Shown: positions 9,526 through 26,003, counted from the stretch's first letter. The stretch: DNA of 64,000 bases from a virus (IMGVR_UViG_3300042997_000757:1-64000); one strand, 5' to 3'. Numbers and translations are program-made. Notes: generated by a model from the sequence alone, not told the origin.

Positions 9526-10077
9526 TTATTTCCACTCGCCTTTGTGATTAATGGTCTTCCTTACCGTTCCTATGTACTTCACACCTTTACCCACTATATT
9601 TTTAGGGATAATAAAAGAAGTAGAACCGTAATCTTCACCCATATTGCGATAAGGAATGGCTTTAGGTGCTTTTGACTCCGCATTGTCAGCAATCATCCCG
9701 CTACGGTACTCAACAGACTCAGACAACATTGGTTGGATACCTTTGAGACGTTTTTGAAAAGGAGGGTTCTCATGTTCCAAGTTGTCTCTCCACATCAGTG
9801 GATCGATGGTGTCTCGGTCAATCCGGTACACATGAGCGTATGTTGTGTCCGATTTCCAAGAAACTTTATCTGCCGCCGATTGTGGGGTACCGGCATGAAA
9901 AGAAGACCCATGAAGGTTTGTAAGGGAATGCCTAGGAATAGCAGGGTACTGTTCGTCAGGAATCTCATGAACAGGCACTTTGTTCTGTGAACCATGTATC
10001 ACGTAGGTAAATTGCCGACTCATATGGTCACGAGGGGGCTTTACACCTTCTGAATCATACTTATACGGAATAACCAT
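9526..10077 (-). CDS. Hypothetical protein, possibly ART-PolyVal-like
   Basis: VIHGS..FHAGT..A...HVY...PYRNMGEDYGSTSFII. Confidence 0.45.
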   Translation of the reverse strand: MVIPYKYDSEGVKPPRDHMSRQFTYVIHGSQNKVPVHEIPDEQYPAIPRHSLTNLHGSSFHAGTPQSAADKVSWKSDTTYAHVYRIDRDTIDPLMWRDNLEHENPPFQKRLKGIQPMLSESVEYRSGMIADNAESKAPKAIPYRNMGEDYGSTSFIIPKNIVGKGVKYIGTVRKTINHKGEWK

Positions 10078-11137: not shown

Positions 11138-11776
11138 TTACTTTACATTTACAATCTTATAGTCGTAGGAGTTGTCGTCAGAGGTAAGCCACTTGCTACC
11201 GTCTTCAACACCCCATACCCTGTCGCTTACTAACCGCTCAATGAGCGTTTCACCCTTTTTGGTCGTATGTGAAGGGTCCCATAGTTTTATTCTATTGTTT
11301 GGCTGGATTGCAAAGTTGCCGTCTTCTCGCTCAATAACGTGACCACACTTGTGGTTGGCAGAGTCCTCTGAGTAGTTTGTGTTCGGGATGTTGTTGTCTG
11401 GGTGGTGCCAGTCAAGAGTAAACAGGTAGGAGCCGTTTACGTCCTTCTTATGCCTGTCAATGTACGTGACAGACCGACCTCTCATGTGCTCAAATGTCGT
11501 TACCGCTATATAAGGGGAGAAGCAGTTCCACATGACCAAATCGTGGATGTCCACTTCAGGGCTGTCTTCTCTCATGCAAAACGCATTTATTGGTGCTCTC
11601 CACCAAACTCCACCATCTTCCATCAAAAAGTGGAACACAGGCGCTCTATCCGTTACCGAGGCGACTCCAAAGATAACAACTGGAAACTTTAATTCATGAC
11701 TGTCCTCTTGGTTGCGAAGGAAGTTTCCTCTAACAAAACAATGAACTGGAGGAACATTGGCGTTAAGTTCAGGCAT
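11138..11776 (-). CDS. Conserved phage hypothetical protein
   Basis: 212-aa ORF (LNANVPP..HKCGHV..QPNNR); leaderless-type -10. Confidence 0.7.
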   Translation of the reverse strand: MPELNANVPPVHCFVRGNFLRNQEDSHELKFPVVIFGVASVTDRAPVFHFLMEDGGVWWRAPINAFCMREDSPEVDIHDLVMWNCFSPYIAVTTFEHMRGRSVTYIDRHKKDVNGSYLFTLDWHHPDNNIPNTNYSEDSANHKCGHVIEREDGNFAIQPNNRIKLWDPSHTTKKGETLIERLVSDRVWGVEDGSKWLTSDDNSYDYKIVNVK

Positions 11777-11793: not shown

Positions 11794-12183
11794 TTAGCAG
11801 ACACCATTACGGCAGTAGCCTGTACCCTCTGGGACTTCTTTTCCACAACTAGAGCATTCGTTGTCTTCACGGATATGGCTTACATGGTCCATAGCGGAAG
11901 CACGGAGGGAACTAGCAGAACGTGCAGGACGGTATGTAGGGTCGTTACGCATCAATAGTGCTTCATTGGACAAGTAACCCAAATACGCATGGTACTTGTT
12001 TGGTTTACCTTCATACGGGTTCATGACGTCTGCACCCTCTATTGTCCTTTTCATCAGGTAAGCAGCGGTTACCTCGGAATCAGATAATTCGTGACCAAAA
12101 TGTTCACGCAAGGCATCGGGATGTGGAATAACACTTGCACGGGGATGGAAAGAGACTTGATTGAAGGCTTTGTTGCGACTCAT
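11794..12183 (-). CDS. Hypothetical protein with C-terminal Zn ribbon
   Basis: CSSCG...YCRNGVC. Confidence 0.6.
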   Translation of the reverse strand: MSRNKAFNQVSFHPRASVIPHPDALREHFGHELSDSEVTAAYLMKRTIEGADVMNPYEGKPNKYHAYLGYLSNEALLMRNDPTYRPARSASSLRASAMDHVSHIREDNECSSCGKEVPEGTGYCRNGVC

Positions 12184-12197
12184 GTATCTAGTATAGG

Positions 12198-12605
12198 TTA
12201 GTCTCGTTCATGAAGGTAGGTTTCATCTTCACGGTGTACATGTCCCGGTAGGCGGTCAGATTGTGCTTCTGGGTCATTGACAGACTCTGTATAGGTCACA
12301 GGAACCATCCATGAGGGGTCAATATCATGTGCGGCGGCAATACGGTGAGCGCCATTGATCAATGTTGTCTGCCCACGACTTCTACTTAAACGAATAGGGT
12401 TAACCATACCCTCTTTGCGAAGACTTTTATGCAAACCTATGGCTTGCGCCTCGTCCCCTTTGCGGTTCCAGAAGGCTTCTTCAGAGGGATGCCCAGATCT
12501 AGTGACATCTTTAGTGGTCATTTCTAGGTCTGACCCTTCAAGTTCTTCACGAAGCATACGCACAGGCATGAACAGTTGTCCGTTAAGGTGATGCCATGTA
12601 GCCAT
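12198..12605 (-). CDS. ParB/Srx-like domain protein
   Basis: LRKEGMVNPI..LINGAHRIAAA; paralog of 10081-10518. Confidence 0.7.
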   Translation of the reverse strand: MATWHHLNGQLFMPVRMLREELEGSDLEMTTKDVTRSGHPSEEAFWNRKGDEAQAIGLHKSLRKEGMVNPIRLSRSRGQTTLINGAHRIAAAHDIDPSWMVPVTYTESVNDPEAQSDRLPGHVHREDETYLHERD

Positions 12606-12715
12606 ACACCCAGTATAGGGCTATTTGGTGCGATTTTCAGGGTAACCCATTGTTGGAATAGGTCTATTGCGTCATTTTTTCGTGTTGTCGCTGACTCGAC
12701 CCTACCCCCCACCCC

Positions 12716-13492
12716 TGTGACGAACGTCACTTAACCATGGGGGGGTGCCTTTCGTCACACCTCGGCGCCTGCACCGTGGGTGCCTCGCCCCCCGTGGCGC
12801 CCTGAGCGCCCCCCAGTGCCCCGTGTGACCTCCGATGGCATGGTTATATGTCACACCCCCCCTCTGTGGCTTGACTGGAGGGGAAATTTGTGCGCAATTA
12901 CGAAAGCCTTATGTTATAAGGGTTTCCCGAGGTCTGAATTTCCCTACTACATGGCGCCACCCTTTGTCAAGTCATAGCGAAATAGGGCGAAAGCCTTATG
13001 GCACAAGGGGTTGAGGGGTGTTGTGACGAACGTCACGTACCTCAAGCCCTTTAAAATAGCGGATATGCCTTTTTATTGGCGCCTAAGGGGGGTTTCCCTC
13101 TGATATTGACTCGTTATCCCCGAGGAGGGGGTAGATCGCTGAGAACGGCGTACAGGGCTGTCTCAGGGGCAAACAGATTATTTAAAGGAAATGTGTGTTT
13201 TCGCCCCTAGAAATGGGGCTATGTGACGAACGACACACACAGGAGGGCGTACGGGGTAGGTATTCCCACTACCTCCCAGCCCCCAGTACCAATGTTGCAC
13301 CTGAGCACCACACATCAGGCGTAGCACCCCCTGTCTCCCCTCCTGTCTCCCTTGGTGAATCCATGGGAGGTCTGTCGGTTTGGCGCCCTTTTCTTCGCCC
13401 ATAAAGCCCTCGGAGCCTTATTCCGTACGGGTTTGAGCCATTTCCAGCGCATACCTCTTATATGCACTTATGCATATGTGACGAAGGTCACA
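12716..13492. promoter_or_regulatory. Five CRP-type operator sites (TGTGA-CGAAnG-TCACA-like)
   Basis: 12716-12731, 12744-12759 (reverse), 13022-13037, 13222-13237, 13477-13492 (perfect consensus). Confidence 0.65.
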
Positions 13493-13545
13493 CCCATGGA
13501 TGCATCCACAATGCGCATTTAATCCATCAGCCGTGCCTACAATGG

Positions 13546-13945
13546 CGCTGGAGGCACATATCCCTCCAGCGGTTGACACCGCTCCTCGGTCAATTAATTG
13601 TTAGGCGCCACGAACGGCAGGCATCGCTCCCGAGGAGATCCGCAAGCAACAGAGGTGAAGGCAACACGGCAAAGTGCTGTGATAACGCTTGCGAAATACT
13701 CCGACCCCTTAGACGACGGATGACCGCAGGAAAGCACACAGCGCCCCGTGGGTGGAGCAACCACCGCTAACAATTCAAGCCTGTCTCAGTGGCAACTGAG
13801 GCTGATCGGCGCTCACATAAAAAGAGCGCCCCAACGCATACCTGCACTTCTCTTCGGATGAGAACTTCTCGGGCAACCCCGAGATGTCAGAGCAACACTG
13901 AGCGCAGGTTCTACGCCTTTGGCGTTTTACAACAAGCAATTAATT
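13546..13945 (+). ncRNA. Large structured non-coding RNA or leader of unknown class
   Basis: About ten helices found by eye, GCAA/UUCG-type loops, G-U pairs on + strand; TACAAT at 13538-13543 just upstream. Confidence 0.65.
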
Positions 13946-13964
13946 CTCTTGAAAGGGGAACGCA

Positions 13965-14975
13965 ATGTCCGCACCAACCATCAACCTTGAAGCCCTCACT
14001 CCTGTTGAGCATGACCTGCTCTACTGCGAACGGCTCATCCTTCTCTCCAACGTCCGCTGGAACCATAAATGTTCATCTGAGAACGTCGTGCGCTACTTCG
14101 GCAAGGACGTCTACTTGCCAACGGGCGAATTTTCCTACGGTCGTGAACGTCACTCATCGGTGTACATCGCACCGAACACAGTGGTTGAGCCAACACACCT
14201 CAGTGAGGCTGTGGTTCTCACCGCTGATGAGGCTGTGCGTCTCTACGAGTTAGGCGTGGCTTGCCACAAGTCGTACCTCGCTGAGTCACTTGCTGAAACC
14301 ATCGTCCAGTTCAAAAAGGACGTGAAGACACTGGCATGGGCTGAGGCGCTCGTCGCTGACTGCGAACTTGAGTACAGCCGACGCCAGTGGGCACGCTTTT
14401 ATCTAGTGACGTCGTCTGACGGTCACATCCACAAGTCAACGTGGTGCTCCACATGCAACAAGGGTCAGTACGCCACCTCGTTCGCCTTGGTGCCTTACCT
14501 GAGTGGTGCAAGCGTCGCTGACGCTGTCGCAGACCTCGGGTGCGCATTGTGCTCGGTGTGTTTCCCCGATGCCCCTGTTGAATCCAAGGAGCAGGTCAAG
14601 ATCAGCGCTCGTGTTGCACTGGTGCTCGCAGAGCGTGGTGTGGAGGCATTCCAAGAGGCACGAGCCAAGGCTCAGGCTGACGCACAAAAGCGTGCCAGCG
14701 ACCGCTGTGAAGGCAGTGGCACTGAGTCTGCAAGAGGCGAGCGCTACGGCTACGCCTGCACGGTGTGTGGCAACACTCAGCGCAACGCTGGCAAGGTGCG
14801 TGCACATCGTCGTCCTCGGTTCTACGCAGTCAAGGAAAACTGGCAGGGGTACAACGACGGCTGGTGGAACGGCACCGACTGGGCACCAAGCACCAAGAAG
14901 TTGGCATTGTCCAGCAGAGAAGAAGCACAAGCCATCGTGGAGGCTCACGGTGGTGACCGAGTCCGCTCGGAGTAA
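13965..14975 (+). CDS. Early hypothetical protein with Cys/His metal-binding motifs
   Basis: GHIHKSTWCSTC, LCSVCFP, CTVCG; RBS GAAAGGGG. Confidence 0.75.
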   Translation: MSAPTINLEALTPVEHDLLYCERLILLSNVRWNHKCSSENVVRYFGKDVYLPTGEFSYGRERHSSVYIAPNTVVEPTHLSEAVVLTADEAVRLYELGVACHKSYLAESLAETIVQFKKDVKTLAWAEALVADCELEYSRRQWARFYLVTSSDGHIHKSTWCSTCNKGQYATSFALVPYLSGASVADAVADLGCALCSVCFPDAPVESKEQVKISARVALVLAERGVEAFQEARAKAQADAQKRASDRCEGSGTESARGERYGYACTVCGNTQRNAGKVRAHRRPRFYAVKENWQGYNDGWWNGTDWAPSTKKLALSSREEAQAIVEAHGGDRVRSE

Positions 14976-14981
14976 TCAACG

Positions 14982-15055
14982 GCATCAGCGCTTCGGCGCT
15001 GGTGCTCACAGAGGGCATCGGGTTCACGCTCGGTGCCTTCTGTGAGCATTCGCTC
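14982..15055 (+). ncRNA. Three-hairpin intergenic element, copy A
   Basis: GCATCAGCGC-TTCG-GCGCTGGTGC; ~17-19-bp second stem; GAGC-ATTC-GCTC. Confidence 0.7.
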
Positions 15056-15088
15056 AACCAACCATTCTCTTGAAAGGGGAAATAAAAA

Positions 15089-15661
15089 ATGAAAACCATT
15101 GAGATCACATGGAAAGCATTCGGTAGACCAACCACCGCCGTTTTCCAATACGACACCGCACTGGATGACCTCGCAATCTGCGCTAAGGCGTTCCGTGAGA
15201 CGAACCTGTATGAAGGCTTCTTGTGGGCATCACTGCAAGCGCAGTTGCCTGAAGAGCGCACACACACGGCGCTGTCGGTCGGTGACGAGGTCACCATTGA
15301 CGACAACACATACGAGTGCCGTGGCGCAGGCTGGAGCAAGGTGGAAGACATTCCACATCGTTGGTGTCACATATGCGAGAACTTTCTCACTGAGTGGAAC
15401 TTGGCGCCTGTCGGGTGCAGTGACGCTCTCAACCGCAAGCGTGTCTATGCGGACGGGGTGTACTTGTGCGACGACTGCTACGACCACTGGTGCACCGAGA
15501 ATGACATCCAGCCCGAAGGCTTCATTGAGCCTGCTACGGCTGTTCAAGAAGACGTGCAGACAGTCCTCAACTGGTTGCCACAAGGCTTCCCCGAGGCTGA
15601 CATCGCCTACGACGCACTTAACCGCTTGGCTGAGGCTCTCGGTCTCAAGCCCTACGTATAA
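15089..15661 (+). CDS. Early hypothetical protein (Zn finger)
   Basis: HTALSVGDEV; CHIC..CDDC; RBS GAAAGGGG. Confidence 0.75.
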   Translation: MKTIEITWKAFGRPTTAVFQYDTALDDLAICAKAFRETNLYEGFLWASLQAQLPEERTHTALSVGDEVTIDDNTYECRGAGWSKVEDIPHRWCHICENFLTEWNLAPVGCSDALNRKRVYADGVYLCDDCYDHWCTENDIQPEGFIEPATAVQEDVQTVLNWLPQGFPEADIAYDALNRLAEALGLKPYV

Positions 15662-15689
15662 CCAACCCAACCGACCACTGGAGGTCAAC

Positions 15690-15914
15690 ATGTACAACAT
15701 TCAACTCACCTACTCAAACACACGCCAAGTCAAGTACCTGAAAGCGCACCTGTTGCGTGGAGGCAGAATCGTCTCCACTCGTTGGCAACAGAGTGCACGC
15801 AGGTTCAAGTCTGAAGCAGAGGCGCAAGAGTTCATCAACAAGGTCAGCCCGTATTTTCACGGTACGTGGACGGCTGTCCCATACACACCCATCAAGCAAG
15901 CAAGCAACGCCTAG
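15690..15914 (+). CDS. Early hypothetical protein; paralog of N-half of 15927-16448
   Basis: GGAGG RBS; MYNIQL..ARRFKSEAEA..GTWTAVP. Confidence 0.7.
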   Translation: MYNIQLTYSNTRQVKYLKAHLLRGGRIVSTRWQQSARRFKSEAEAQEFINKVSPYFHGTWTAVPYTPIKQASNA

Positions 15915-15926
15915 GAGGCACACATC

Positions 15927-16448
15927 ATGAAGTACAACATTCAATTCGTATACACAGGAACACGCCACGACGGCACTTTTTATCTTGCCAACACTGGAGA
16001 CGCTGTGGTGAGAGCATCCACTACACCGCATCAAGATATTGCTAAGAGGTTTGCCAGTGAAGAGGAGGCTCTTGCTTTTGCAAAACGGCATACCAGTAGC
16101 GAAAAGTACAACCCGTTTAGTGTCGGCACATGGACAGTCGTCCCAGCACCTACGAGGTACACAACATCAATAAAAATTGAAACCACCACAAAAGTTGCCT
16201 ACGGCACCGAGTGCGTCTACCTCAAGTACGACGTTTTCACTGCCGAAGAATTGCCATGGCAATGGAGCCAGTTGTCATTGGACGAGAAATACGACCACGT
16301 CAACAACTACTGCCACTGGCACTCAGGTGAGTCTGACATCAGTGGTCAGAATGATTACTGGCTGGAGAACAACCCACAAGAGCACGGCAACCAAACTGAG
16401 GTCGTCATAGAAGTAGTTGAGACATACCGATTAGAGGAGGAAATTTAA
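15927..16448 (+). CDS. Early hypothetical protein
   Basis: TAGGAGG RBS; MKYNIQF..AKRFASEEEA..GTWTVVP. Confidence 0.75.
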   Translation: MKYNIQFVYTGTRHDGTFYLANTGDAVVRASTTPHQDIAKRFASEEEALAFAKRHTSSEKYNPFSVGTWTVVPAPTRYTTSIKIETTTKVAYGTECVYLKYDVFTAEELPWQWSQLSLDEKYDHVNNYCHWHSGESDISGQNDYWLENNPQEHGNQTEVVIEVVETYRLEEEI

Positions 16449-17171
16449 GTGTCTGCATCAACCATCACCGTCAAGCAACAGTCATTTGTGCGCTCGCTTT
16501 TACTGGAGCGCTTAGATGCACTTGAGATCACCGACCTTGACGAGTACATCAAGGCACAGTCCATCAACACCCTCACGGGTCAAGGTGCGAGCAAACTCAT
16601 TGAGGCTTTGAAGAGCATCCCTTGCTCCAAGAAGTCCGAGCATGCACACCTTCCCGAGGGGCGTGTCATCGCCAACCGATACGGCAACAAGTGCACCCTG
16701 TGCAACTCGTACGTGGAGGCTGGCGACGGCTGGGCAGTTCAGACCAGCGCAGGCTGGCGCACCTTCCACAGCGCTGGTCAGTGCGTCACAGTTGACGTCA
16801 GTGCCCCGAGCATTGAGGTCGAGAGTGGCAAGACCTATCGCCTTGAAGACGGCACCATCGCTGTTGCGTACACCACACAGAATGGTCGCCTTGCTTCACG
16901 TCGTCTCATCATTGATGAGGACGGCACAGGGCACCTTGAGTACTGGCAAGGTGGCGTCGCCAAGATCAAGGCGTACGGCGCTCTGCTCACGCAGGAGGAG
17001 GCGTCACGCATTGGTCGCCTGCATCGCTTCTGCGTCTCGTGCTGTCGTGACCTCACCGACGACCGCTCGTTGTCTGCTGGCTACGGTCAGACCTGCGCCT
17101 CTAACAATGGCTGGTGGTACCCCAGCCTCAAGGAGGCGAAAGAAATACTTCAGCGTGACATCACGCTCTGA
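16449..17171 (+). CDS. DUF6011-like Zn-binding domain protein
   Basis: C-terminal CVSCCRDLTDDRS..AGYGQTCA. Confidence 0.65.
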   Translation: MSASTITVKQQSFVRSLLLERLDALEITDLDEYIKAQSINTLTGQGASKLIEALKSIPCSKKSEHAHLPEGRVIANRYGNKCTLCNSYVEAGDGWAVQTSAGWRTFHSAGQCVTVDVSAPSIEVESGKTYRLEDGTIAVAYTTQNGRLASRRLIIDEDGTGHLEYWQGGVAKIKAYGALLTQEEASRIGRLHRFCVSCCRDLTDDRSLSAGYGQTCASNNGWWYPSLKEAKEILQRDITL

Positions 17172-17245
17172 GATCTAGGGGCGTCACTCCCCCGAGACAC
17201 GTCACCTGCTACTGCTCGGCAGGTGCGTGAGTTAAATGGGCAGGA

Positions 17246-17318
17246 GCGTCACCACTTCGGTGGTGGCGTCCTCAGAGGTCATCAGCGTCCTGCTGGTGGC
17301 TTCTGAGGGCGTAAGCCC
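17246..17318 (+). ncRNA. Three-hairpin intergenic element, copy B
   Basis: GCGTCACCAC-TTCG-GTGGTGGCGT; 17-bp second stem; GGGC-GTAA-GCCC. Confidence 0.7.
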
Positions 17319-17357
17319 GAGCACCAACCCAAACCATCAAGCCTTAGGAGGCACACA

Positions 17358-18944
17358 ATGAATGCACACCGCTCCACCCTTGACTCGTTGCTCACGCAAT
17401 TGCCACGAGTCGCCAACGCCATTGTCATTGATCAAGATCGTGCGAACCTCTCAGGTGCGCATGATGCTGACCTTGACTTTGACCTATCACTGCCACTGCT
17501 CCCGTACCAACGTGCTGGCGTCAAGTACATCCTTGAGCACAAGCATGAGGGCATCGGTCACCGTGCACTGCTCGGTGATGAGGCTGGTTTAGGTAAGACA
17601 GCGCAATTAATCGCTGTGGCACTCCATGCGAAGCGCAACGGCAAGCGCTCGCTCATCGTGGTGCCACCATCGCTTCGTGAGAACTGGCGCCGTGAGTTGT
17701 TGAAGTTCACTGCTGGCGAGTTGTCAGTTGAAGTCATCGCAGGTGCCAAGCCATACAAGTTGAGCAACGCTGACGTCATTGTCATCGGTGATGCAACGCT
17801 CGTCTCGTGGGCTGTAGCGCTCGGCAAGGTTGGCTTCGGCTCCTTGCTGGTTGATGAGTCACACCGTGCCAAGAACCCTCGTGCACAGCGCACCAAGGCT
17901 CTACAGGCTCTTGCGTTGACCATTGACAAGGATGGCTACATCGTCCTCGCTTCAGGCACTCCATGCCTCAACAAGCCACTAGAACTTGTCGCACAGTTAG
18001 ACATACTCGGTGTGCTCGCTCCAGTGTTCGGCTCTGCTGGCTCGTTCAAGTTTCGCTACTGCGATCCACAGCCAGTCAACATCGGACGTCGCATTGTCTA
18101 CACATACAACGGTGCGAGCAACACCGCTGAGTTGCACGACAAGTTGCGTGGCACGGTGTACATCCGACGTCGCAAGTTGGACGTGCTCACTGAGTTGCCA
18201 CCAAAGCGTCGTGCTCAACTGGCTATCGCATTGAGTGATGCGACACTGCGTGAGTACAACCGCATTGAGGCAGACTTCCTCGCTTGGGTATTTGACAAGG
18301 GTGGACGTGAAGCAGTGCTCAAGGCATCCAATGCCGAGACCATCACACGCCTCACAGCGCTCTTGCAGGAACTTGGCAAGGCAAAGGTGGAGGCAGGAAT
18401 TGAGCATGTTGAGAGCCTCATTGACGGCGACCAGCCTGTTGTGGTGTTCGCTCACCACCGTGCAGTCATTGACGCATTCATCGCTGAGTGCGACAAGCGT
18501 GCCGAGACAGATCCACGCTGGCGTGCGGTCAAGGTTGTCGGTGGTCTTGGTGATGAAGCCAAGCAAAAGGCTGTAGACGCTTTCCGCTCGGGTGAAGCCA
18601 ACATCTTCGTTGGCAACTACCAAGCCTCAGGTGTCGGTCTCACGCTCACCTCCAGTGGCGACAAAGCATGCACCCAGTGGGTGTCGCTTCAACTGCCATG
18701 GGAGCCAAGCACACTCAGCCAAGCAGAAGATCGCATTCACCGCATCGGTCAGACCGAGTCGGTCACCTGCTGGCACATCACAGCCGTCAAGAAGGACTCC
18801 AGCGAGACGCTGGACGGTCGCTTGTATGCACTGCTCAACCACAAGAGTGAAGTCGTCTCCAGCGTGCTGGATGGCTTCGCTAGTGACCTCGGTGCAGAGG
18901 CTGGTTCAATCATCGCTTCCCTACTTGAAGAGTGGGTCGGCTAA
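17358..18944 (+). CDS. SNF2/HARP-like SF2 helicase (early region)
   Basis: DEAGLGKT, DESH, SGTP, QAEDRIHRIGQ. Confidence 0.9.
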   Translation: MNAHRSTLDSLLTQLPRVANAIVIDQDRANLSGAHDADLDFDLSLPLLPYQRAGVKYILEHKHEGIGHRALLGDEAGLGKTAQLIAVALHAKRNGKRSLIVVPPSLRENWRRELLKFTAGELSVEVIAGAKPYKLSNADVIVIGDATLVSWAVALGKVGFGSLLVDESHRAKNPRAQRTKALQALALTIDKDGYIVLASGTPCLNKPLELVAQLDILGVLAPVFGSAGSFKFRYCDPQPVNIGRRIVYTYNGASNTAELHDKLRGTVYIRRRKLDVLTELPPKRRAQLAIALSDATLREYNRIEADFLAWVFDKGGREAVLKASNAETITRLTALLQELGKAKVEAGIEHVESLIDGDQPVVVFAHHRAVIDAFIAECDKRAETDPRWRAVKVVGGLGDEAKQKAVDAFRSGEANIFVGNYQASGVGLTLTSSGDKACTQWVSLQLPWEPSTLSQAEDRIHRIGQTESVTCWHITAVKKDSSETLDGRLYALLNHKSEVVSSVLDGFASDLGAEAGSIIASLLEEWVG

Positions 18945-18965
18945 CAATCTGAGGTGGTGCTCAGG

Positions 18966-19059
18966 ACGTCACAGAGGCAACTCTGTGGCGTGCCATGGGC
19001 ACTGCGGTGTGGGTCTTCCCCTTTCACAACACATCGCAGTGCTCATGGGACGCAAGTCC
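18966..19059 (+). ncRNA. Three-hairpin element, copy C; loop antisense to the TGAAAGGGGAA RBS
   Basis: ACGTCACAGAG-GCAA-CTCTGTGGCGT; 19-bp stem with loop TTCCCCTTTCA (19016-19026); GGAC-GCAA-GTCC. Confidence 0.7.
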
Positions 19060-19096
19060 AAGCAACCAACTACTAATGCCTTAGGAGGCACACATC

Positions 19097-19477
19097 ATGA
19101 AGACCCATGTACTAATCACAATCACACATCCCGACGACAGCCTTTCAAGGAGCCTCGTTGACTTCGCCGTTAGTAGCATCTTTGATGCCATCGGCGGAAA
19201 CACTGAAGAAGGCTGGGGTGTCACCACGTCCAGTCCGAAAGCACTACAGATCAAAGAACTCGCACTGGCTGTGGCATTGCGCTACCACCTGTCCGACTTT
19301 GACGGTGACAAAACATCCGACGAGACGTTCTCCGCTATCGGGGAGAGTGAAGACATCGTGGTGTGGGAGCCATTTGAAAGATGGGAAAGTTACGAGATCA
19401 CCAATTCAGTATGGAATCTCGCCCACGATATTGAGACAACATTTAATGAAGCCCTAGGTTTGGAGGAATCAGAATGA
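19097..19477 (+). CDS. Early hypothetical protein
   Basis: TTAGGAGG RBS; acidic 126-aa ORF. Confidence 0.7.
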   Translation: MKTHVLITITHPDDSLSRSLVDFAVSSIFDAIGGNTEEGWGVTTSSPKALQIKELALAVALRYHLSDFDGDKTSDETFSAIGESEDIVVWEPFERWESYEITNSVWNLAHDIETTFNEALGLEESE

Positions 19478-19656
19478 AATACACAATTGAAGTTACTGAA
19501 ACAATCAACCACTCATACGAAGTGGAGGCTGGATCGGAAGAGGAAGCGTTAGAAATTTACTACTCGTACGACGACGACCAGTTGAAAGACCTTGATCTTG
19601 ACGGGCAATCAACATGGGATACATCGCCATGGGACATATCAACGGAGGAATCATAA
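19474..19656 (+). CDS. Small DpnD/PcfM-like protein
   Basis: MKYTIEVTE..YEVEAGSEEEA. Confidence 0.6.
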   Translation: MKYTIEVTETINHSYEVEAGSEEEALEIYYSYDDDQLKDLDLDGQSTWDTSPWDISTEES

Positions 19657-19817
19657 TGAAGTACACACTCACCTACGAGAACGTGATCCATCACCGCCAT
19701 GAAGTGGAGGCTGGATCATTAGAAGAAGCACGCAGACTGTTTGACACAAACGAATCAGTATGTGTGGACACACAAGAAACATGGAACACCACCGACATAG
19801 AGGAAGTAAAACAATGA
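19656..19817 (+). CDS. Small protein, tandem paralog of 19474-19656
   Basis: MKYTLTYE..HEVEAGSLEEA; GGAGG RBS, TAATG coupling. Confidence 0.65.
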   Translation: MKYTLTYENVIHHRHEVEAGSLEEARRLFDTNESVCVDTQETWNTTDIEEVKQ

Positions 19818-20077
19818 GCGCTACACACACACATTACTTTGTTGTCTCGTACAACTCAGCAACCAGCAAATGGGAATGGGATACCGAAGCAGAAGAACTT
19901 CATTTCCACGAAGGCACCGTCGTCCACAACGAGACCAACGAGTGGGGTTACGCCTACCTCGGTGACGGTGAGTACATAGACAACGAGGACGAACTGTCCT
20001 CACAACTTGGCAACGCAATTGACTTGTTGAATTGCGGAATCATCCCATCAGACAGAATAATTAATGGAGGTATATAA
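19814..20077 (+). CDS. Early hypothetical protein
   Basis: ATGA overlap with previous gene. Confidence 0.65.
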   Translation: MSATHTHYFVVSYNSATSKWEWDTEAEELHFHEGTVVHNETNEWGYAYLGDGEYIDNEDELSSQLGNAIDLLNCGIIPSDRIINGGI

Positions 20078-20078
20078 A

Positions 20079-20423
20079 ATGAGTGAACTCATCGGATATT
20101 TTGGGGTTGACAGTGGGCAGATCATTATCGGTGATCCTTGCTACCTAGACCAGTTCATCACGGAGGAGTTGTTCAGCGCCGACCTGCCACAGCCTTACCC
20201 GTACTCTTACAACGGTGCGTGCTCTGCAACGTGCTCTAAGAAGGGTGCTGGTGTGCTTGCTAATGGCAATGCAATCGCTGTGTCTACTGGCTACGGAGAT
20301 GGTTCTTATCCCGTCTACATTGAGCGTGACCACAACGGTCGGATCATCGAGATCACGATCTCATTTGATGGCTCACACGAGACCGACGAAGACGAATACG
20401 AAACCGACGAAGACGAATACTGA
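20079..20423 (+). CDS. DUF4241-like protein
   Basis: GVDSGQIIIGDPCY...STGYGDGSYPVY. Confidence 0.65.
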   Translation: MSELIGYFGVDSGQIIIGDPCYLDQFITEELFSADLPQPYPYSYNGACSATCSKKGAGVLANGNAIAVSTGYGDGSYPVYIERDHNGRIIEITISFDGSHETDEDEYETDEDEY

Positions 20424-20438
20424 GCAATCAACCACGGG

Positions 20439-20533
20439 GCATCACGGGCGAGAGTCCGTGGTGCGCTCAGGGTGCATGGGGCTTTTGCCTCCTAAGTTCC
20501 AGTCCCCATGCACTCTGAGGGCACTTACTGCCC
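20439..20533 (+). ncRNA. Three-hairpin element, copy D; loop antisense to the CTTAGGAGGCA RBS
   Basis: GCATCACGGGC-GAGA-GTCCGTGGTGC; 16-bp stem with loop TGCCTCCTAAG (20486-20496); GGGCA-CTTAC-TGCCC. Confidence 0.7.
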
Positions 20534-20574
20534 GAGCACCAATTAACCAACCAACAACGACCTAGGAGGTCACA

Positions 20575-20907
20575 GTGAAAACATCAACCCTTGAAGACAT
20601 CCTTCAACACAAGACAGTGCTTGTTAAGCATGCACGAAAAATAATTAATGCAGATACCTACTGCAACGACATTGATGCGTGGGAGTCACTCATCATTGAA
20701 GACCAAGCCTTTGACTTCAACGTGTTCATATGGGAAGAAGACAACGGAGACGAAGTCACGCACATCAGCGTGTACCCAGTTGAGTTCAAAGACTCCCAAG
20801 AGTATGGCGATACCGACTACAGCACGTACTTACGACTGGTCACATTCAATCCCAAGACAGGCAAGATCACCGACGTATCAAACAACTCCGTGGAGGAAAA
20901 ACAATGA
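20575..20907 (+). CDS. Early hypothetical protein
   Basis: TAGGAGG RBS, GTG start. Confidence 0.7.
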   Translation: MKTSTLEDILQHKTVLVKHARKIINADTYCNDIDAWESLIIEDQAFDFNVFIWEEDNGDEVTHISVYPVEFKDSQEYGDTDYSTYLRLVTFNPKTGKITDVSNNSVEEKQ

Positions 20908-21419
20908 AGAAGACAGCGCTAGACAAACTTAAAAATGGAGACATCGTCTCTCGTAAATATCGTGGAACCATCACTCGCCACGTTGTGACATCACGCACCA
21001 ATTCAGGTACGCACTTTTGGGTGCGAGACCTCAAGTGGGGCGATGATGGCTACTACGACGAGAACCACGACCTCACCGAGCCAAAGTGGTTTGCTGTGGA
21101 ATACATCAAGCGTGTTGAAGAGGAAGAAGTCGTGGCACGAGGTCAATCACAAACCATCGGCGCTTGGGTATGGGTCATATGGAATGACTCCTACAAGCCC
21201 GAGAGCCAGTACATCTCATTCGGCACTGAAGTGTACGAGGGCGAAGACGTCATCTCTGACTCCTTTGGTATCGGAGACGATCAGATCTTCTACTACGCCA
21301 CTGAGCAAGAGTGGTTTGACTTGAATGACGGCATTGAACACAACGATGGCTGGAAGATTGACCTATCAAGAATTAATTACAACATCGCAATCATTATCCA
21401 AGAAGGAGCACTGCAATGA
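20904..21419 (+). CDS. Early hypothetical protein
   Basis: GGAGG RBS, ATGA overlap. Confidence 0.7.
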   Translation: MKKTALDKLKNGDIVSRKYRGTITRHVVTSRTNSGTHFWVRDLKWGDDGYYDENHDLTEPKWFAVEYIKRVEEEEVVARGQSQTIGAWVWVIWNDSYKPESQYISFGTEVYEGEDVISDSFGIGDDQIFYYATEQEWFDLNDGIEHNDGWKIDLSRINYNIAIIIQEGALQ

Positions 21420-21709
21420 ATACCTATGAGAAGACAACCCATTTCCTAGAGCAGTTAGATATCAACGCACTGTCACAGAGCGCAGTGCTCAGTGCAGTCG
21501 CTGACTTCTTTGAACTGGTCATCTGTCCGCACGACAGGCAAGAAGCAGAGAACGTGGCTGGGAGGGCGCTCACTGAAGAAGAGTGGGCGACCCTTCAGAT
21601 CGACATCTACTGGCTCTCTCTTGGCTGGTCAACCGAGGCAGATGTCTTGTCCATCGCAGAAGCGTTGAACAAGCAAGGCATCTCCAGTTCCTATGTACCA
21701 CCCTTTTGA
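21416..21709 (+). CDS. Early hypothetical protein
   Basis: AAGGAG RBS, ATGA overlap. Confidence 0.7.
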   Translation: MNTYEKTTHFLEQLDINALSQSAVLSAVADFFELVICPHDRQEAENVAGRALTEEEWATLQIDIYWLSLGWSTEADVLSIAEALNKQGISSSYVPPF

Positions 21710-21745
21710 TAGATCACTAACCACTCAATGACCAAGGAGGTCAAC

Positions 21746-22324
21746 ATGAATACCGAAGTAGACATTGATGCTCTTGAAGAGCACCTGTGCGTTGAATGCA
21801 AAGAGACAGTAGACCCTGAAGGCAACGACGACAGTCGCTGGTCATCCGTCAAGGAGGACTACGTCTGTTACTCGTGCTATGAGAGTGACATCCAGTCATG
21901 CTCAACCATCCACCTCATTGAAGGCGACCTCGTAGTGAAGATCTACGTTGGCGACCTTGACATCTTCAATGAGTACGGAGACCCCGTTGACGGAGGTCTC
22001 AGGATCAGGCGTGAGTGGGTATCCAGCGATATATGGCGTGGTTACCACAACACAGTCATCGCTGGCTGGGTTGACGTGCTCAGTGGCTGGACGACAGGTG
22101 GCTGGGGTGACCCAGTTGCTGACCGCAAGGCAAACTTCAATGAGTGGGCTGAGGCTTTACTCACCCAAGAGATATATCCACCCTGTTCAGTTGCTATCGT
22201 GACTGACCCAACATCCAACCTGTTTTCAACGGCGATCACTGTTCTCGTAAAAGAGAGAGACGTTAAGTCTTTCCGAGAATGGCTCTCCGACGAATACGAC
22301 GACCTCAATTCATCACTTAGTTAG
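21746..22324 (+). CDS. Early hypothetical protein with N-terminal Zn finger
   Basis: CVEC..CYSC; AAGGAGG RBS before ATG 21746. Confidence 0.7.
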   Translation: MNTEVDIDALEEHLCVECKETVDPEGNDDSRWSSVKEDYVCYSCYESDIQSCSTIHLIEGDLVVKIYVGDLDIFNEYGDPVDGGLRIRREWVSSDIWRGYHNTVIAGWVDVLSGWTTGGWGDPVADRKANFNEWAEALLTQEIYPPCSVAIVTDPTSNLFSTAITVLVKERDVKSFREWLSDEYDDLNSSLS

Positions 22325-22334
22325 GAAAAACAAA

Positions 22335-22586
22335 ATGTCAGAACCAATCAACCAACCACCATTGTGGTGTCGCAACTCTACTTGCCCTGCCACTCACGAA
22401 GCCTTTGATGATGAAGGCGTATGTCAATCATGCGAGACGCACAACATTCTGCGTGAATGGAATATCACTATTCAATTCCCAGTGTTGCGTGCGTACACAG
22501 AAGCCGAGGCGCTCGCACGTTTCATACATGCTGTTGGCACGGACAGCAGAGACATACTCCACCACATCCATGCAGAAAGGGTATAG
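22335..22586 (+). CDS. Early hypothetical protein
   Basis: Cys pairs; in operon. Confidence 0.6.
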   Translation: MSEPINQPPLWCRNSTCPATHEAFDDEGVCQSCETHNILREWNITIQFPVLRAYTEAEALARFIHAVGTDSRDILHHIHAERV

Positions 22587-22588
22587 CC

Positions 22589-23044
22589 ATGAACAACCTG
22601 TTAAATATCAATATCGTCAAGACCGAGGTAGCAACACTGCCATACATCTTGGAGTTCACTAACGTCAATAATTCCCGATCCGAGAAGTACGCCTTTGAGA
22701 ATTGGGACGGCGTGGTGGAGTTCATACAAGATCAGGGGCACTGGTGGCTCAACAATGTAGACGTCAGTCCTTACACCAAGGCGTACTACCGTGGGCGCCT
22801 CAGCGCCTTCTATGACGCCGTTGATGGATGGTACTGCCCGTCACCTCTCTCGGGTGAATGGGCTGGGGAGTCCATCCCTGAGTTGTTGGGCGATCTCATC
22901 AGGCAGGCAGAAGCCACCAGCGACGATGAGTTTGAAGACATAGACCCCAATGAGAAGTCCAGTGCTGTGCTTGACGCATACATCGCTGGCTACGACACAT
23001 ACTTTGTGAAGCATGCTCCCGACCTCATCGAGGTTGAAGCGTGA
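22589..23044 (+). CDS. Early hypothetical protein
   Basis: GAAAGGG RBS before ATG 22589; PLSGEWAGES motif. Confidence 0.65.
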   Translation: MNNLLNINIVKTEVATLPYILEFTNVNNSRSEKYAFENWDGVVEFIQDQGHWWLNNVDVSPYTKAYYRGRLSAFYDAVDGWYCPSPLSGEWAGESIPELLGDLIRQAEATSDDEFEDIDPNEKSSAVLDAYIAGYDTYFVKHAPDLIEVEA

Positions 23045-23208
23045 ACACAATTGAATTCACCAACTGCATTTGGTGCGAGCAACCAGTAGACGGCATCCCA
23101 CATGCAGGTGTGGATGTCAACACCACGCTCGGGCGTGTGTTCGGTTATGTATGCCGAGCATGCGACCGTGCATTCTCAGACCAACCAACGTCCAAGGAGG
23201 ACATTTAA
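23041..23208 (+). CDS. Small Zn-finger protein (55 aa)
   Basis: Manual translation: CIWC...CRAC; GTGA overlap. Confidence 0.55.
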   Translation: MNTIEFTNCIWCEQPVDGIPHAGVDVNTTLGRVFGYVCRACDRAFSDQPTSKEDI

Positions 23209-23209
23209 C

Positions 23210-23482
23210 ATGGGTTACCAAACAGCACTCGGCATTGCCGAGACCGACATCAGCCTTGAGCAACAACTCTCATGGCACTTCACCACCAACTGCTACCCAC
23301 CAGTATCAACACTGATGATTCCACTTGCTGTTGAAGCAATAGACCTTGCCAATGAAGACCTATGGGATGAATACATCTCGTGCCCTGAGGGCGTGACATA
23401 CAGAGGCAGGACGTTAGTTAGTGCCTCAGAAGTTATTGAACATCTTTACCTTTCCGCATTTATTACACAGGAGGAAGAATAA
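23210..23482 (+). CDS. Early hypothetical protein
   Basis: AAGGAGG RBS; WHFTTNCYPPV. Confidence 0.7.
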   Translation: MGYQTALGIAETDISLEQQLSWHFTTNCYPPVSTLMIPLAVEAIDLANEDLWDEYISCPEGVTYRGRTLVSASEVIEHLYLSAFITQEEE

Positions 23483-23715
23483 TGAAAGTCACAGACTGGA
23501 GCAGGTGGCAACGTACGAAAGCACTCACTGCTGGAGCGTTGTTCGCTATCGGAATCATATTGATCGGTGGGCTGGAAGGCGTTGACTTTCCACCCACTAC
23601 CTCATGGGGACTGTTGTGTGGGATCTTCTCTGTGATCCTTTTCAAGAACGTGCTACGCCATGACCAACGCATCAACCCTGACCGATACATCGTTGAAGAA
23701 GAGGAGTGGCAATAA
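23482..23715 (+). CDS. Small two-TM membrane protein
   Basis: Two hydrophobic segments; AGGAGG RBS. Confidence 0.65.
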   Translation: MKVTDWSRWQRTKALTAGALFAIGIILIGGLEGVDFPPTTSWGLLCGIFSVILFKNVLRHDQRINPDRYIVEEEEWQ

Positions 23716-24173
23716 TGGACGCATATCAACAAAAGCAATGGGAAGCCATCAATGCTGTAGTCGAAGCAGGGGGTGGAGTCATGGAACTCTTGAAAGACCC
23801 CATCAAGGTAGAGGTGCTTGATACCCCACAGGCAATTTTCAAGGCAGGTGCGAGCACCAAAGAGGCGCATGGCAAGACTTGGATAATTCCCCAACGGGAC
23901 TTACCCGAGTACTTGGAGCGAGAACTCCTTGCCCGTGGACAGAAGAGGCACGACTACTACTTCATCGCCGTGCGTGAACCAATCGGTGGTCAGGCTGGTG
24001 GTGGTGGGAACATCCAGTTCATCTGTAATCCCTACGCCCACGACGACGGGGTTTTCTTCCGTGTCACCGTCGGCTGTAGGCACACCATGGAAGGTACCCA
24101 ACTGGGTAACTGCTACTGGTCATACAAATGCACCAAATGTGACTACCACTACAAAGTGGATTCAGGCGATTAA
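23715..24173 (+). CDS. Hypothetical protein with C-terminal Zn ribbon
   Basis: GCRH..GNC...CTKC. Confidence 0.65.
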   Translation: MDAYQQKQWEAINAVVEAGGGVMELLKDPIKVEVLDTPQAIFKAGASTKEAHGKTWIIPQRDLPEYLERELLARGQKRHDYYFIAVREPIGGQAGGGGNIQFICNPYAHDDGVFFRVTVGCRHTMEGTQLGNCYWSYKCTKCDYHYKVDSGD

Positions 24174-24182
24174 TTAATTAGT

Positions 24183-24212
24183 TTGCAATATCCGTATTTA
24201 CGGGGATAGATT
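24183..24212 (+). promoter_or_regulatory. Sigma70/SigA-like promoter
   Basis: TTGCAA-18 nt-TAGATT upstream of the DUF932 gene. Confidence 0.5.
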
Positions 24213-24258
24213 AATCCTCGTAACTCAACCAATCAACCAACCAAAGAAAGAGAATACA

Positions 24259-25299
24259 ATGTCCGCAGAATCAGCAGAGGTGCTTAATACCTTCCAATTA
24301 ATTGGATTCACTGACCCGACCTATGGTCGTGGCAATGCATGGCACAACAACCCCGTCTTGCGTCAGCAACTCGGTATTGAAGACAACCACTATGCACACG
24401 CCATCCCAGTAGACGACGTCCTGCGTCGTCTCTTCAACTGGGAAGCCATTGAAGCGCCAGTGTTCGTAGGTGTCCCACACAATGGTGGCACTCGTTACAT
24501 CGCTGACCCTGACCGCAAGGCAATCGTGCGCAGTGATGACGACACCGTCTTCAATGTGTTCAAGTCGGGGTACCAAGTCCACTCATACAAGAAGTGGCTC
24601 TTGGACACCGTGTCCAACATCATTGACGATGACAACCTCGCTATCGGTACCGCAGGTCTCTTGCGCCGTGGTGGCAAGGCATACGTCACGGTGGAGTTGC
24701 CCGACACGGTCAAGACTCCGTCAGGCTTCAATGTCCGCCCACACTTGCTCGCATGCACCTCGCATGATGGCACGCTGTCAACCACCTACAAGGCAATTGC
24801 CACCATCGTGGTGTGCGACAACACCCTTGCTGGTGCTCTCGGTGAATCCACCGCACAGCACAAGGTACGTCACAGCAAGCACAGCATCGGTCGCTTGCAG
24901 AACGTGCGTGATGCTCTTGGCATCGTGCATGAGTTCACTGATGACCTCGTGGCTGAGATTGAGCGCCTGTCCTCACAGGTGGTCACTGACAACGAGTTCC
25001 AAGCCATCATTGAGCAACTGATCCCTGTTGACCTCAGCATTGAGGTTCGCCCACAGGTGCAGGCTCGTGTGCAGAACAAGCGTGAACTCATCCGCCACAT
25101 CTACAAGACAGATGAGCGTGTGAAGGACTGGACAGGCACCAAGTTGGGTGTGCTTCAAGCATTCAACACCTACCAGCATCACTTTGCAGGTACCGACGTC
25201 TCACGCTCGGAGCGCAATGCTTTGAACGCCATCATCGGCAAGGCAGAAGCCAGCGACCGTCTTGTGCTCAACACCATTGACCAACTGGTGTCTGCATGA
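24259..25299 (+). CDS. DUF932 family (phage/plasmid-like TIGR03299) protein
   Basis: TAGLLRRG, LLACTSHDGT, VVCDNTL, KVRHSK. Confidence 0.85.
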   Translation: MSAESAEVLNTFQLIGFTDPTYGRGNAWHNNPVLRQQLGIEDNHYAHAIPVDDVLRRLFNWEAIEAPVFVGVPHNGGTRYIADPDRKAIVRSDDDTVFNVFKSGYQVHSYKKWLLDTVSNIIDDDNLAIGTAGLLRRGGKAYVTVELPDTVKTPSGFNVRPHLLACTSHDGTLSTTYKAIATIVVCDNTLAGALGESTAQHKVRHSKHSIGRLQNVRDALGIVHEFTDDLVAEIERLSSQVVTDNEFQAIIEQLIPVDLSIEVRPQVQARVQNKRELIRHIYKTDERVKDWTGTKLGVLQAFNTYQHHFAGTDVSRSERNALNAIIGKAEASDRLVLNTIDQLVSA

Positions 25300-25598
25300 C
25301 CGATCAGCACCGTGGGGAGGGGGAAACCTCTCCCCACACGCTGGAAGTTTGGTTACCCACTGTGAAGTACATTGACCCTGATAGCGACTGGAGAGAACAC
25401 GCCAACTGCCGTCAAAATGGGAGCACAATGTTCTTTGCTTCTCGTAGCATTAAACAGCAAAAGGAAGCCATCAGCGTCTGCACCGCTTGTGAAGTGCGCC
25501 TCCAGTGCTTGAACTTTGCGATACGTAATGAAGAGAAAAATGGCATATGGGGAGGGGTTAATTTCCACTCCTCCAAGCGCAAAAAAGTTAACAATTAA
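25296..25598 (+). CDS. WhiB-family transcription factor (true start may be later)
   Basis: WREHANC..FF..CTAC.V..QC...GIWGG. Confidence 0.85.
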   Translation: MTDQHRGEGETSPHTLEVWLPTVKYIDPDSDWREHANCRQNGSTMFFASRSIKQQKEAISVCTACEVRLQCLNFAIRNEEKNGIWGGVNFHSSKRKKVNN

Positions 25599-25648
25599 AA
25601 AGACCCACCTTCACTGCGTCATTGCGGTGAGGGTGGGTCTTTTTTTTT
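25598..25648. terminator. Bidirectional intrinsic terminator at convergence point
   Basis: AAAAGACCCACC...GGTGGGTCTTTTTTTTT. Confidence 0.85.
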
Positions 25649-25772
25649 GCTTTATCCCTTGTCGGTGATCTCTTCCAGCAACTTTGGCTTGTCGAGGTTC
25701 TTCTTGCACCTGTGCGATGGTGGGCTGGAGGGGTTAACGAACAAGGTCACCTTCTGTCCACATGACTTGCAT

Positions 25773-26003
25773 TCATAAATTCGTTTGGTCATCTCCGAGT
25801 ACCTTCCATGGTCGCCACACTGCAAGAAAAGACATTATCTCCGACTTATCCCAAATAGGTGTTGAAGCGAGAACTTTTACTGGATCAGGAAATTCCGGCA
25901 TCTGCCGAAGAGAATGTATGCGTTGCTTGCTCACTCCCAGCACAGAGGCAACCTCGGCGGTGCCAAGGATGGCATCTACTGGTAGTGCTGTATTGTTCAT
26001 CAT
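25773..26003 (-). CDS. AlpA/excisionase-like HTH protein
   Basis: GTAEVASVLGVSKQRI..FPDP...PIW. Confidence 0.75.
   Translation of the reverse strand: MMNNTALPVDAILGTAEVASVLGVSKQRIHSLRQMPEFPDPVKVLASTPIWDKSEIMSFLAVWRPWKVLGDDQTNL

Follow-up and report, generated by a model that had tools for sequence, protein, structure and literature searches.

The first 64 kb of a complete viral record of 94,926 bp (IMGVR_UViG_3300042997_000757), referred to here as the window, contain a + strand block of raised G+C content (0.52–0.56 over positions 12000–26000, against 0.42–0.47, about 0.44, elsewhere), and the large genes outside this block lie nearly all on the − strand. The block encodes an SNF2 helicase, DUF6011, DUF4241 and DUF932/TIGR03299 proteins, many unknown proteins and, as the product of its last gene, WhiB; because the early block encodes WhiB, the host is actinobacterial. 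Four intergenic sites in the block, which a reading made from the sequence alone had described as copies of a three-hairpin RNA motif, are confirmed here as real copies of an uncatalogued, strongly covarying RNA element of about 90 nt, found in the early operons of a group of actinophages with genomes of about 95 kb. A consensus scan of the early operon predicted no internal sigma-70-like promoter and no internal intrinsic terminator, and the operon is closed by a canonical terminator (Table 1), so that the four copies can be assigned to a single transcription unit of about 12 kb, in which they lie within the first 7 kb (1.5–7 kb in).

Read directly from the sequence, the four sites stand where the sequence-only reading had placed them and have the architecture that it had described. 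Stem 1 is a helix of 10–11 bp capped by a tetraloop, in which RCRUCA is paired with UGGYGY and position 4 is a U.G wobble; stem 2, of 16–19 bp in the window copies, begins 0–1 nt past stem 1; and stem 3, of 4–5 bp, overlaps stem 2 in that its 5′ arm has 1–2 bases in common with the stem 2 foot. The tract 3′ of stem 3 is G-poor and CA-rich, and is followed by a Shine-Dalgarno (SD) sequence and a start codon. Stem 2 carries an 18-nt C-rich loop in copy 3 (19012–19029) and a 22-nt loop that includes GCCUCCUAAG in copy 4 (20482–20503). The folding energies of the four copies are far below those of dinucleotide shuffles (z = −7.9, −5.5, −7.1 and −5.2 for copies 1–4, with none of 200 shuffles as stable). 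The single-strand bias of the motif is real: a regular expression for stem 1 matches the four sites and a short non-hairpin sequence at 9792, all on the + strand of the window, and the covariance model described below scores 44–97 bits on the + strand as against 17–25 bits on the − strand at the same loci.

Table 1. Positions of the element copies and of associated features in the window (SD, Shine-Dalgarno sequence; RBS, ribosome-binding site; bits, covariance model score)
Feature	Position	Strand	Details
Gene 1 RBS (UGAAAGGGGAA)	13950–13960	+	11-nt antisense match to copy 3 loop; identical RBS at gene 2
Stop codon upstream of copy 1	ends 14975		
Copy 1	14982–15055	+	stem 1 14982–15005 (UUCG); stem 2 15006–15045; stem 3 15044–15055 (GAGC-AUUC-GCUC); 91.4 bits
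CA-rich leader after copy 1	15056–15091	+	SD (GAAAGGGGAA); ATG 15089 of next gene
Orphan stem-1-like hairpin (ACGUCACCUGC ... GCAGGUGCGU)	17199–17228	+	upstream of copy 2
Copy 2	17246–17318	+	stem 1 17246–17269 (UUCG); stem 2 17270–17308; stem 3 17307–17318 (GGGC-GUAA-GCCC); 97.3 bits
Helicase RBS (CUUAGGAGGCA)	17343–17353	+	11-nt antisense match to copy 4 loop; identical sequence at 19080–19090 (next gene)
SNF2 helicase gene	ATG 17358	+	directly 3′ of copy 2; flanked by copies 2 and 3
Accessory hairpin CUGAG-GUGGUG-CUCAG	18949–18964	+	immediately 5′ of copy 3
Copy 3	18966–19059	+	stem 1 18966–18991 (GCAA); stem 2 18993–19048; stem 3 19048–19059 (GGAC-GCAA-GUCC); 46.3 bits
Copy 4	20439–20533	+	stem 1 20439–20464 (GAGA); stem 2 20466–20519; stem 3 20519–20533 (arms GGGCA/UGCCC); 69.4 bits
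Palindrome-embedded SDs	15912–15926, 17345–17357, 19082–19096, 20563–20574, 21734–21750, 23194–23212		
Canonical intrinsic terminator	25597–25654	.	20-bp stem and U-tract (U8); ends the early operon; only strong terminator there

Relatives of the phage were found in IMG/VR and in JGI metagenomes by using the helicase as an anchor; the element stands at the same junctions in lineages whose helicase is 60–63% identical, and is absent from phages whose helicase is about 30% identical. A covariance model (Infernal) was seeded from eight consistent copies, copy 3 not being among them, and the remaining copies were realigned by Infernal; the seed was limited to eight copies because MAFFT alignments left the group-3 copies two columns off register, and a home-made two-hairpin detector was dropped as too noisy. 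The model recovers non-seed copies at 38–70 bits, and it finds the four known copies and no others in the window, and three of them and nothing new in the whole 94.9-kb record. A wider search, in which a structure-derived pattern scan of the viral collection was followed by the model, gave at least 115 copies (at least 87 distinct) in at least 30 loci, with scores of 33–97 bits for family members; figures given below for 87 members (alignment A9) refer to the distinct copies among the matches listed, so that the family total is at least 87. In 30 loci there are 1–7 copies per locus, always co-oriented and 320 nt to 3.7 kb apart, and single small genes can be bracketed by elements spaced as closely as 320–380 nt. 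A search of the window against Rfam 15 gave no match at the gathering threshold, and permissive searches of the window and six related loci returned only generic miRNA-precursor hairpins, at 20–25 bits against thresholds of 58–100. No match to the region was found by blastn in the GenBank phage collection, and a scan of genome contigs found no close relative or prophage. In one locus an isolated divergent copy with no recognizable stem 3 (L053:1501–1594, − strand of the locus; positions 5025–5118 of record G002) is found some 35 kb away from the early cluster, with a SprT-like gene on one side and a 105-aa open reading frame (ORF) on the other, which shows that the element can also occur outside the helicase operon.

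Covariation, which had been claimed from the four window copies, was measured by counting the pairs of the structure and comparing them with shuffled and slid controls. Among 22 distinct members 97.9% of cells are paired and 25 of the 28 pairs show changes on both sides, with slid controls at 33–50%; among the 87 the corresponding values are 95.7%, 26 of 28 and 30–46%, and none of 500 shuffles matched the observed pairing in either set. The claim that the U.G pair at position 4 is invariant holds in a weaker form, the pair being near-invariant (21/22 and 80/87, with six of the seven exceptions being other standard pairs), and its frequency is probably somewhat inflated, because both the scan pattern and the model favour U.G; the alignments, moreover, are fitted to the model. 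The C-G pair next to it is kept in 87/87 and is the only pair that never varies, the A-U pair at position 6 of stem 1 can change to C-G, and G.U pairs recur at fixed stem 2 positions across the family. The U.G/C-G step together with the three-way junction resembles the site bound by ribosomal protein S15, in which the order of the two pairs is reversed.

The element also occupies a fixed place between the reading frames. Stem 3 begins at one alignment column in 87/87 members and its arms covary (GGGC/GCCC in 33, GGAC/GUCC in 25, GAAC/GUUC in 10 and GAGC/GCUC in 9); in the smaller set it is present in 21 of 22 members, against a mean of 0.48 in shuffled tails. An SD sequence and start codon follow it by 19–43 nt (median 30) in every one of the 87, and the stop codon of the upstream ORF precedes stem 1 by a median of 9 nt (typically 7–9), the distance being at most 20 nt in 60 of 84. 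Because these spacings hold, the module can be regarded as a fixed unit consisting of a stop codon, three hairpins, an unstructured leader, an SD sequence and a start codon, in which extra-stable UUCG or GNRA loops cap stems 1 and 3 and the length of stem 2 ranges across the family from 14 to 19 bp. The description of the element as a cis-acting structured RNA module on the sense strand of a long early mRNA, which does not act as a terminator, is supported by the UUCG and GNRA loops, by G.U pairs found on the sense strand only, by the heavy covariation and by the canonical terminator that the operon uses elsewhere. The CA tract was also considered as a partner for the 3′ arm of stem 1, and this pairing was rejected, the tract showing no covariation with the purine or pyrimidine (R/Y) state of stem 1.

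No U-tract follows the element (mean of 2.7 T in 12 nt), and the consensus terminator scan passes over these sites and finds the one at the end of the operon, in agreement with the earlier view that they are not ordinary terminators. The hairpins are nevertheless stable, GC-rich and placed at gene boundaries, as would be expected if they were attenuators, factor-dependent or weak and lacking a U-tract, by which transcription is reduced step by step from gene to gene of the operon; this explanation is very unlikely, because the same operon closes with a textbook hairpin-plus-U8 terminator, and because three hairpins and the conserved alternative pairing described next exceed what a terminator needs.

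In several minimum-energy folds stem 1 is not formed in full. Its four 3′-most bases (GYGY) have an alternative partner in the four bases just 3′ of stem 2 (RCRY), and pairing with these extends stem 2 by 3–4 bp, to about 20–24 bp, while abolishing stem 3. Among the 22 members of the smaller set, columns 36–117 form C-G in 11 members and U-A in 9, columns 37–116 form G-C in 21/21 and columns 38–115 are paired in 21/21; in the larger set the four extension pairs are formed in 81, 87, 85 and 79 members. Columns 12, 51 and 127 show a three-way covariation (A/U/A in 50, G/C/G in 30 and other combinations in 7 of the 87), and because the column common to the two pairings covaries with each partner, both exclusive pairings are taken to be under selection. 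The core, as judged from these sequences, is a pair of mutually exclusive folds which are both kept, and this is the most informative new fact concerning mechanism. In many copies the 3′ arm of stem 3, once freed, can also pair with the GG-rich 5′ flank to form a closing helix, P0; this helix is treated as optional, because its support is modest (12/21 against 7.4 ± 1.8 in shuffles) and it is absent from members of the copy 1 type.

The most likely role of the element, on the model proposed here, is to cut up or insulate the long early mRNA, and the specific form of that role which is tentatively favoured, by analogy with the early mRNA of T7, is that the elements may be RNase III-type punctuation sites. 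In the primary transcript, stem 2 would gain 3–4 pairs from the base of stem 1 to give a helix of 20–24 bp, which would be cut by a double-strand endonuclease of the host, most likely RNase III. After the cut stem 1 would close fully and cap the 3′ end of the upstream mRNA, while stem 3, its 5′ arm freed from the foot of stem 2, would close and cap the 5′ end of the downstream mRNA; a mosaic operon would in this way be resolved into gene cassettes that are independently stable and translated, and some copies would in addition release a stem 2 hairpin whose C-rich loop is able to pair with SD sequences. The idealized RNase III substrate has 22 bp, the T7 early precursor of about 7000 nt carries five RNase III signals, and RNase III cuts leave stabilizing 3′ hairpins (PMC3867540). 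The reading is favoured because the extended stem 2 (~20–24 bp) has the length of about two turns (~20–22 bp) that RNase III demands, because of the T7 precedent and the known stabilizing hairpins, and because it explains both folds; the extra-stable loops on stems 1 and 3 are also such as protective hairpins at mRNA ends would be expected to have. The enzyme would be that of the host, since a search of the phage found no RNase III gene, while an actinobacterial control genome gave one.

The likeness to T7 lies in the presence of several structured signals between co-transcribed early genes (five in ~7000 nt in T7, four in ~5.5 kb here), in a helix of about two turns, in the lack of a U-tract and in the hairpins that would remain at the new ends (PMC3867540). 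Each T7 site, however, is one irregular hairpin that includes an internal loop, and the sites have little sequence in common, whereas the present elements have three hairpins, a bistable core, a near-invariant U.G/C-G step and an actinobacterial host, and their cleavage is putative. Several further points weigh against RNase III punctuation. The near-invariant U.G/C-G step and the conserved stem 2 pairs suggest a partner that recognizes specific sequence, whereas bacterial RNase III has no such requirement; the E. coli proximal- and distal-box rules fit no unique register and were for that reason given no weight, and under those rules the conserved C-G pairs would, in some registers, be antideterminants; and a translational role would account just as well for the close spacing of the stop codon and the constant distance to the start codon.

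Such a role, in which the element is a module for the coupling or control of translation, is a close rival to punctuation and a distinct possibility, if not a probable one. A ribosome terminating 7–9 nt before stem 1 would melt the 5′ strand of the stem 1 base and so flip the bistable core between one state with the stem 1 base and stem 3 and another with the stem 2 extension and P0, and the compact fold would bring the stop codon near the next start codon, so that downstream initiation would be either coupled to upstream translation or insulated from it. Both the closeness of the stop codon and the constancy of the SD and start-codon distance agree with this proposal, as does the maintenance of two exclusive pairings, but neither conformer touches the leader or the SD sequence, so that initiation is not obviously gated, and other early genes have the same leader and palindrome-embedded SD without the three hairpins. 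The SD sequences of many early genes lie in small palindromes that are predicted to form hairpins of 4–5 bp, of the types GCC-UAGGA-GGC, GACC-UAGGA-GGUC, GACC-AAGGA-GGUC and GUCC-AAGGA-GGAC, and this too accords with a translational role by its resemblance to the SAS repeats of Cluster K mycobacteriophages (PMC3203893), to which, with the associated ESAS, the module would be akin.

SAS is a 13-bp sequence, GGGATAGGAGCCC, which occurs with at most two mismatches 3–7 bp before start codons, and ESAS is a pair of imperfect 17-bp inverted repeats with a 4–13-bp spacer, situated just upstream of SAS (PMC3203893, PMC12699233). Like these repeats, the present element occurs in a non-structural gene region of actinophages, in one orientation and in unusually long intergenic gaps; like ESAS, it offers an imperfect inverted repeat of about 17 bp, whose spacer is short and variable, ahead of an SD sequence in a small palindrome, and is conserved across related phages at cassette boundaries (PMC3203893, PMC12699233). 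The identification of the element with ESAS was rejected, since a model of the element (R1) scores at most 15.4 bits on positions 25–60.8 kb of phage Anaya, against 33–97 bits for members, and ESAS is one inverted repeat adjoining SAS, whereas here there are three hairpins and a leader of 19–43 nt. The SAS consensus is absent: the RBSs here are GCC-UAGGA-GGC or GACC-UAGGA-GGUC, which have the outer symmetry in common with it and differ at more than two positions, and the palindromes recall the GGG...CCC symmetry of the Cluster K SAS.

The loops of stem 2 provide further material for a translational role. Most are of 2–6 nt, and all 13 that reach 9 nt or more, among the 87 members, contain a C-run or CCUCC, so that SD sequestration could be added in some copies. 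In three copies the enlarged loop has an 11-nt antisense match to RBSs of its own operon: copies 3 and 4 of the window (Table 1), and the last copy of an independent lineage (G005), whose loop has a different 11-nt match, to the RBS after that phage's first copy. Besides the 13 with enlarged loops, the remaining 74 of the 87 copies have small loops without an anti-SD sequence, which counts against a general translational function of this kind, and because the other lineages show no such long matches, anti-SD pairing is regarded as an optional add-on rather than a core function. The actinobacterial 6C small RNA offers a comparison for a small C-rich anti-SD RNA. Both roles might also be combined in a bistable punctuation device, in which ribosome termination or stem 2 cleavage would flip the fold and so set the translation or stability of the next cistron, and in which the excised hairpin with its C-rich loop would act as an anti-SD RNA that silences earlier genes of the operon; this more elaborate proposal is doubtful. 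One further C-rich pattern was noted in L059:1551–1653 (also in L064 and L162), where CCCCCA occurs three times, in the 5′ flank, in the stem 1 loop (CUCCCCCAG) and in the stem 2 loop (ACUCCCCCAAGU); no target for it was found in the sequences examined.

The sequence-specific conservation in stem 1 bears also on the earlier suggestion of a protein-bound antitermination element. On this view the elongation complex would be made resistant to Rho or pausing across untranslated gaps, either by the two hairpins of the nascent transcript or by a protein that binds stem 1 at the conserved U.G/C-G step, in the manner of HK022 put or lambda nut; processive antitermination, or the binding of RNA polymerase or of a protein in some other way, is held to be unlikely. 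The shape is suggestive, since stem 2 directly adjoins stem 1 and the two cover about 65–85 nt, and the element (~70–95 nt) is comparable to put, which has about 70 nt, two adjacent stem-loops and a cis-acting role in the nascent RNA of a phage early operon (PMC9378689). In one relative (L004) copy 1 directly follows the leader RNA, with no gene between them, as a put-like element might. But put occurs once per operon, shortly after the early promoter, and works through contacts with an E. coli-type RNA polymerase, whereas the present element lies 1.5–7 kb in, is tied to stop and start codons and is repeated, with four copies here, up to seven in relatives and 4–7 copies over as much as 7–8 kb. 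The suggestion is further weakened by the lack of predicted intrinsic terminators inside the operon and by the lack of a recognizable N-like or RNA-binding protein in the annotation of the early operon.

Comparison of near and far relatives shows that the breakpoints of gene gain and loss coincide with the element, the leader and the RBS. A near-identical variant (L003) has an extra insert of about 160 nt after copy 3 (L003:3204–3362 against window 19061–19091), which is bounded by a duplicated CA-leader and RBS. Genes 1 and 2 of the window are both preceded by an identical 18-nt RBS segment (AUUCUCUUGAAAGGGGAA; 13947–13964 and 15068–15085), which bounds gene 1, and because this segment is duplicated and L004 lacks gene 1, the sequences suggest that gene 1 was acquired through a recombination event at this RBS. 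These breakpoints and duplications are what a DNA-level repeat acting as a junction for cassette recombination would produce, and the repeated intergenic PeSL motifs of T4-type phages likewise flank small variable genes at shuffling breakpoints (PMC2839356, PMC4122927). PeSL motifs, however, are composite promoter-terminator DNA motifs, whereas the present element has no promoter or terminator signature: the −10-like hexamer TANNNT, rather than forming part of the repeat as an early promoter motif does in PeSL, is depleted in the 60 nt 5′ of the element (0.06 per member, where about 0.86 would be expected), and only a minority sub-family has it after stem 3. The compensatory changes that keep G.U pairs on one strand only and the RNA tetraloops argue moreover for selection on RNA. 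The shuffling of cassettes is more plausibly a result of the conserved junctions than the function of the element, and a DNA-level role, whether as a recombination junction or as a single-stranded DNA hairpin promoter, is the least probable of the explanations considered, to be entertained only as a remote one. The hairpin promoters put forward in the sequence-only reading were rejected: apart from the depleted upstream hexamers, an N4-like phage would encode a virion RNA polymerase of about 3500 aa, while the largest ORF in this genome has 910 codons, and the stems are of 10–19 bp with RNA tetraloops rather than short hairpins with a 3-nt loop. A search of the phage for a T7-like RNA polymerase (PF00940) gave no match, the control search being uninformative. 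As a separate observation, ten A9 members, those with GAAC/GUUC arms, have the stem 3 loop UACAAU, which at the DNA level matches the −10 hexamer TANNNT perfectly; such hexamers after stem 3 are not general, 24 being present in 86 members and all of these in two sub-families.

The copies constitute a new family of structured RNAs, which belongs to the known general kind of repeated intercistronic elements in phage early operons, and their bistable core is unusual. The family is large (at least 87 distinct members), with unusually clean covariation, a conserved two-state core and no Rfam counterpart, and it belongs to phages of uncultivated actinobacteria, in which gene regulation is almost unexplored. 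If the elements are processing sites, they would form an actinobacterial counterpart of the classic RNase III punctuation of T7, and could explain how each inserted gene is properly expressed in highly mosaic early operons; if they couple or gate translation, they could illuminate the long-unexplained SAS and ESAS of mycobacteriophages; and if the bistable device with its anti-SD RNA proved correct, a self-timed cascade would be encoded wholly by intergenic RNA. In either of the first two cases the compact modular element could find use as an insulator in synthetic operons built for actinobacteria.

Several minor features accompany the copies. The terminator at the end of the early operon is a symmetrical arrangement of A-run, hairpin and U-run at the junction of the + strand operon with − strand genes, and could work in both directions. 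The orphan hairpin upstream of copy 2 pairs ACGUCAC... with ...GUG-CGU, its U being bulged rather than engaged in a wobble pair with G, and stem 2 is lacking; the hairpin may represent a copy that is incomplete or has decayed. The accessory hairpin with the GUGGUG loop is found 5′ of copy 3 in three lineages (the window, L004 at about 11552–11567 and L017 at about 1702–1717) and covaries across them, with CUGAG/CUCAG replaced in the third by CCGAG/CUCGG, and its loop and 3′ flank (GGUGGUGC) are complementary to the CA tract (GCAMCCAC) that lies 3′ of the same element.

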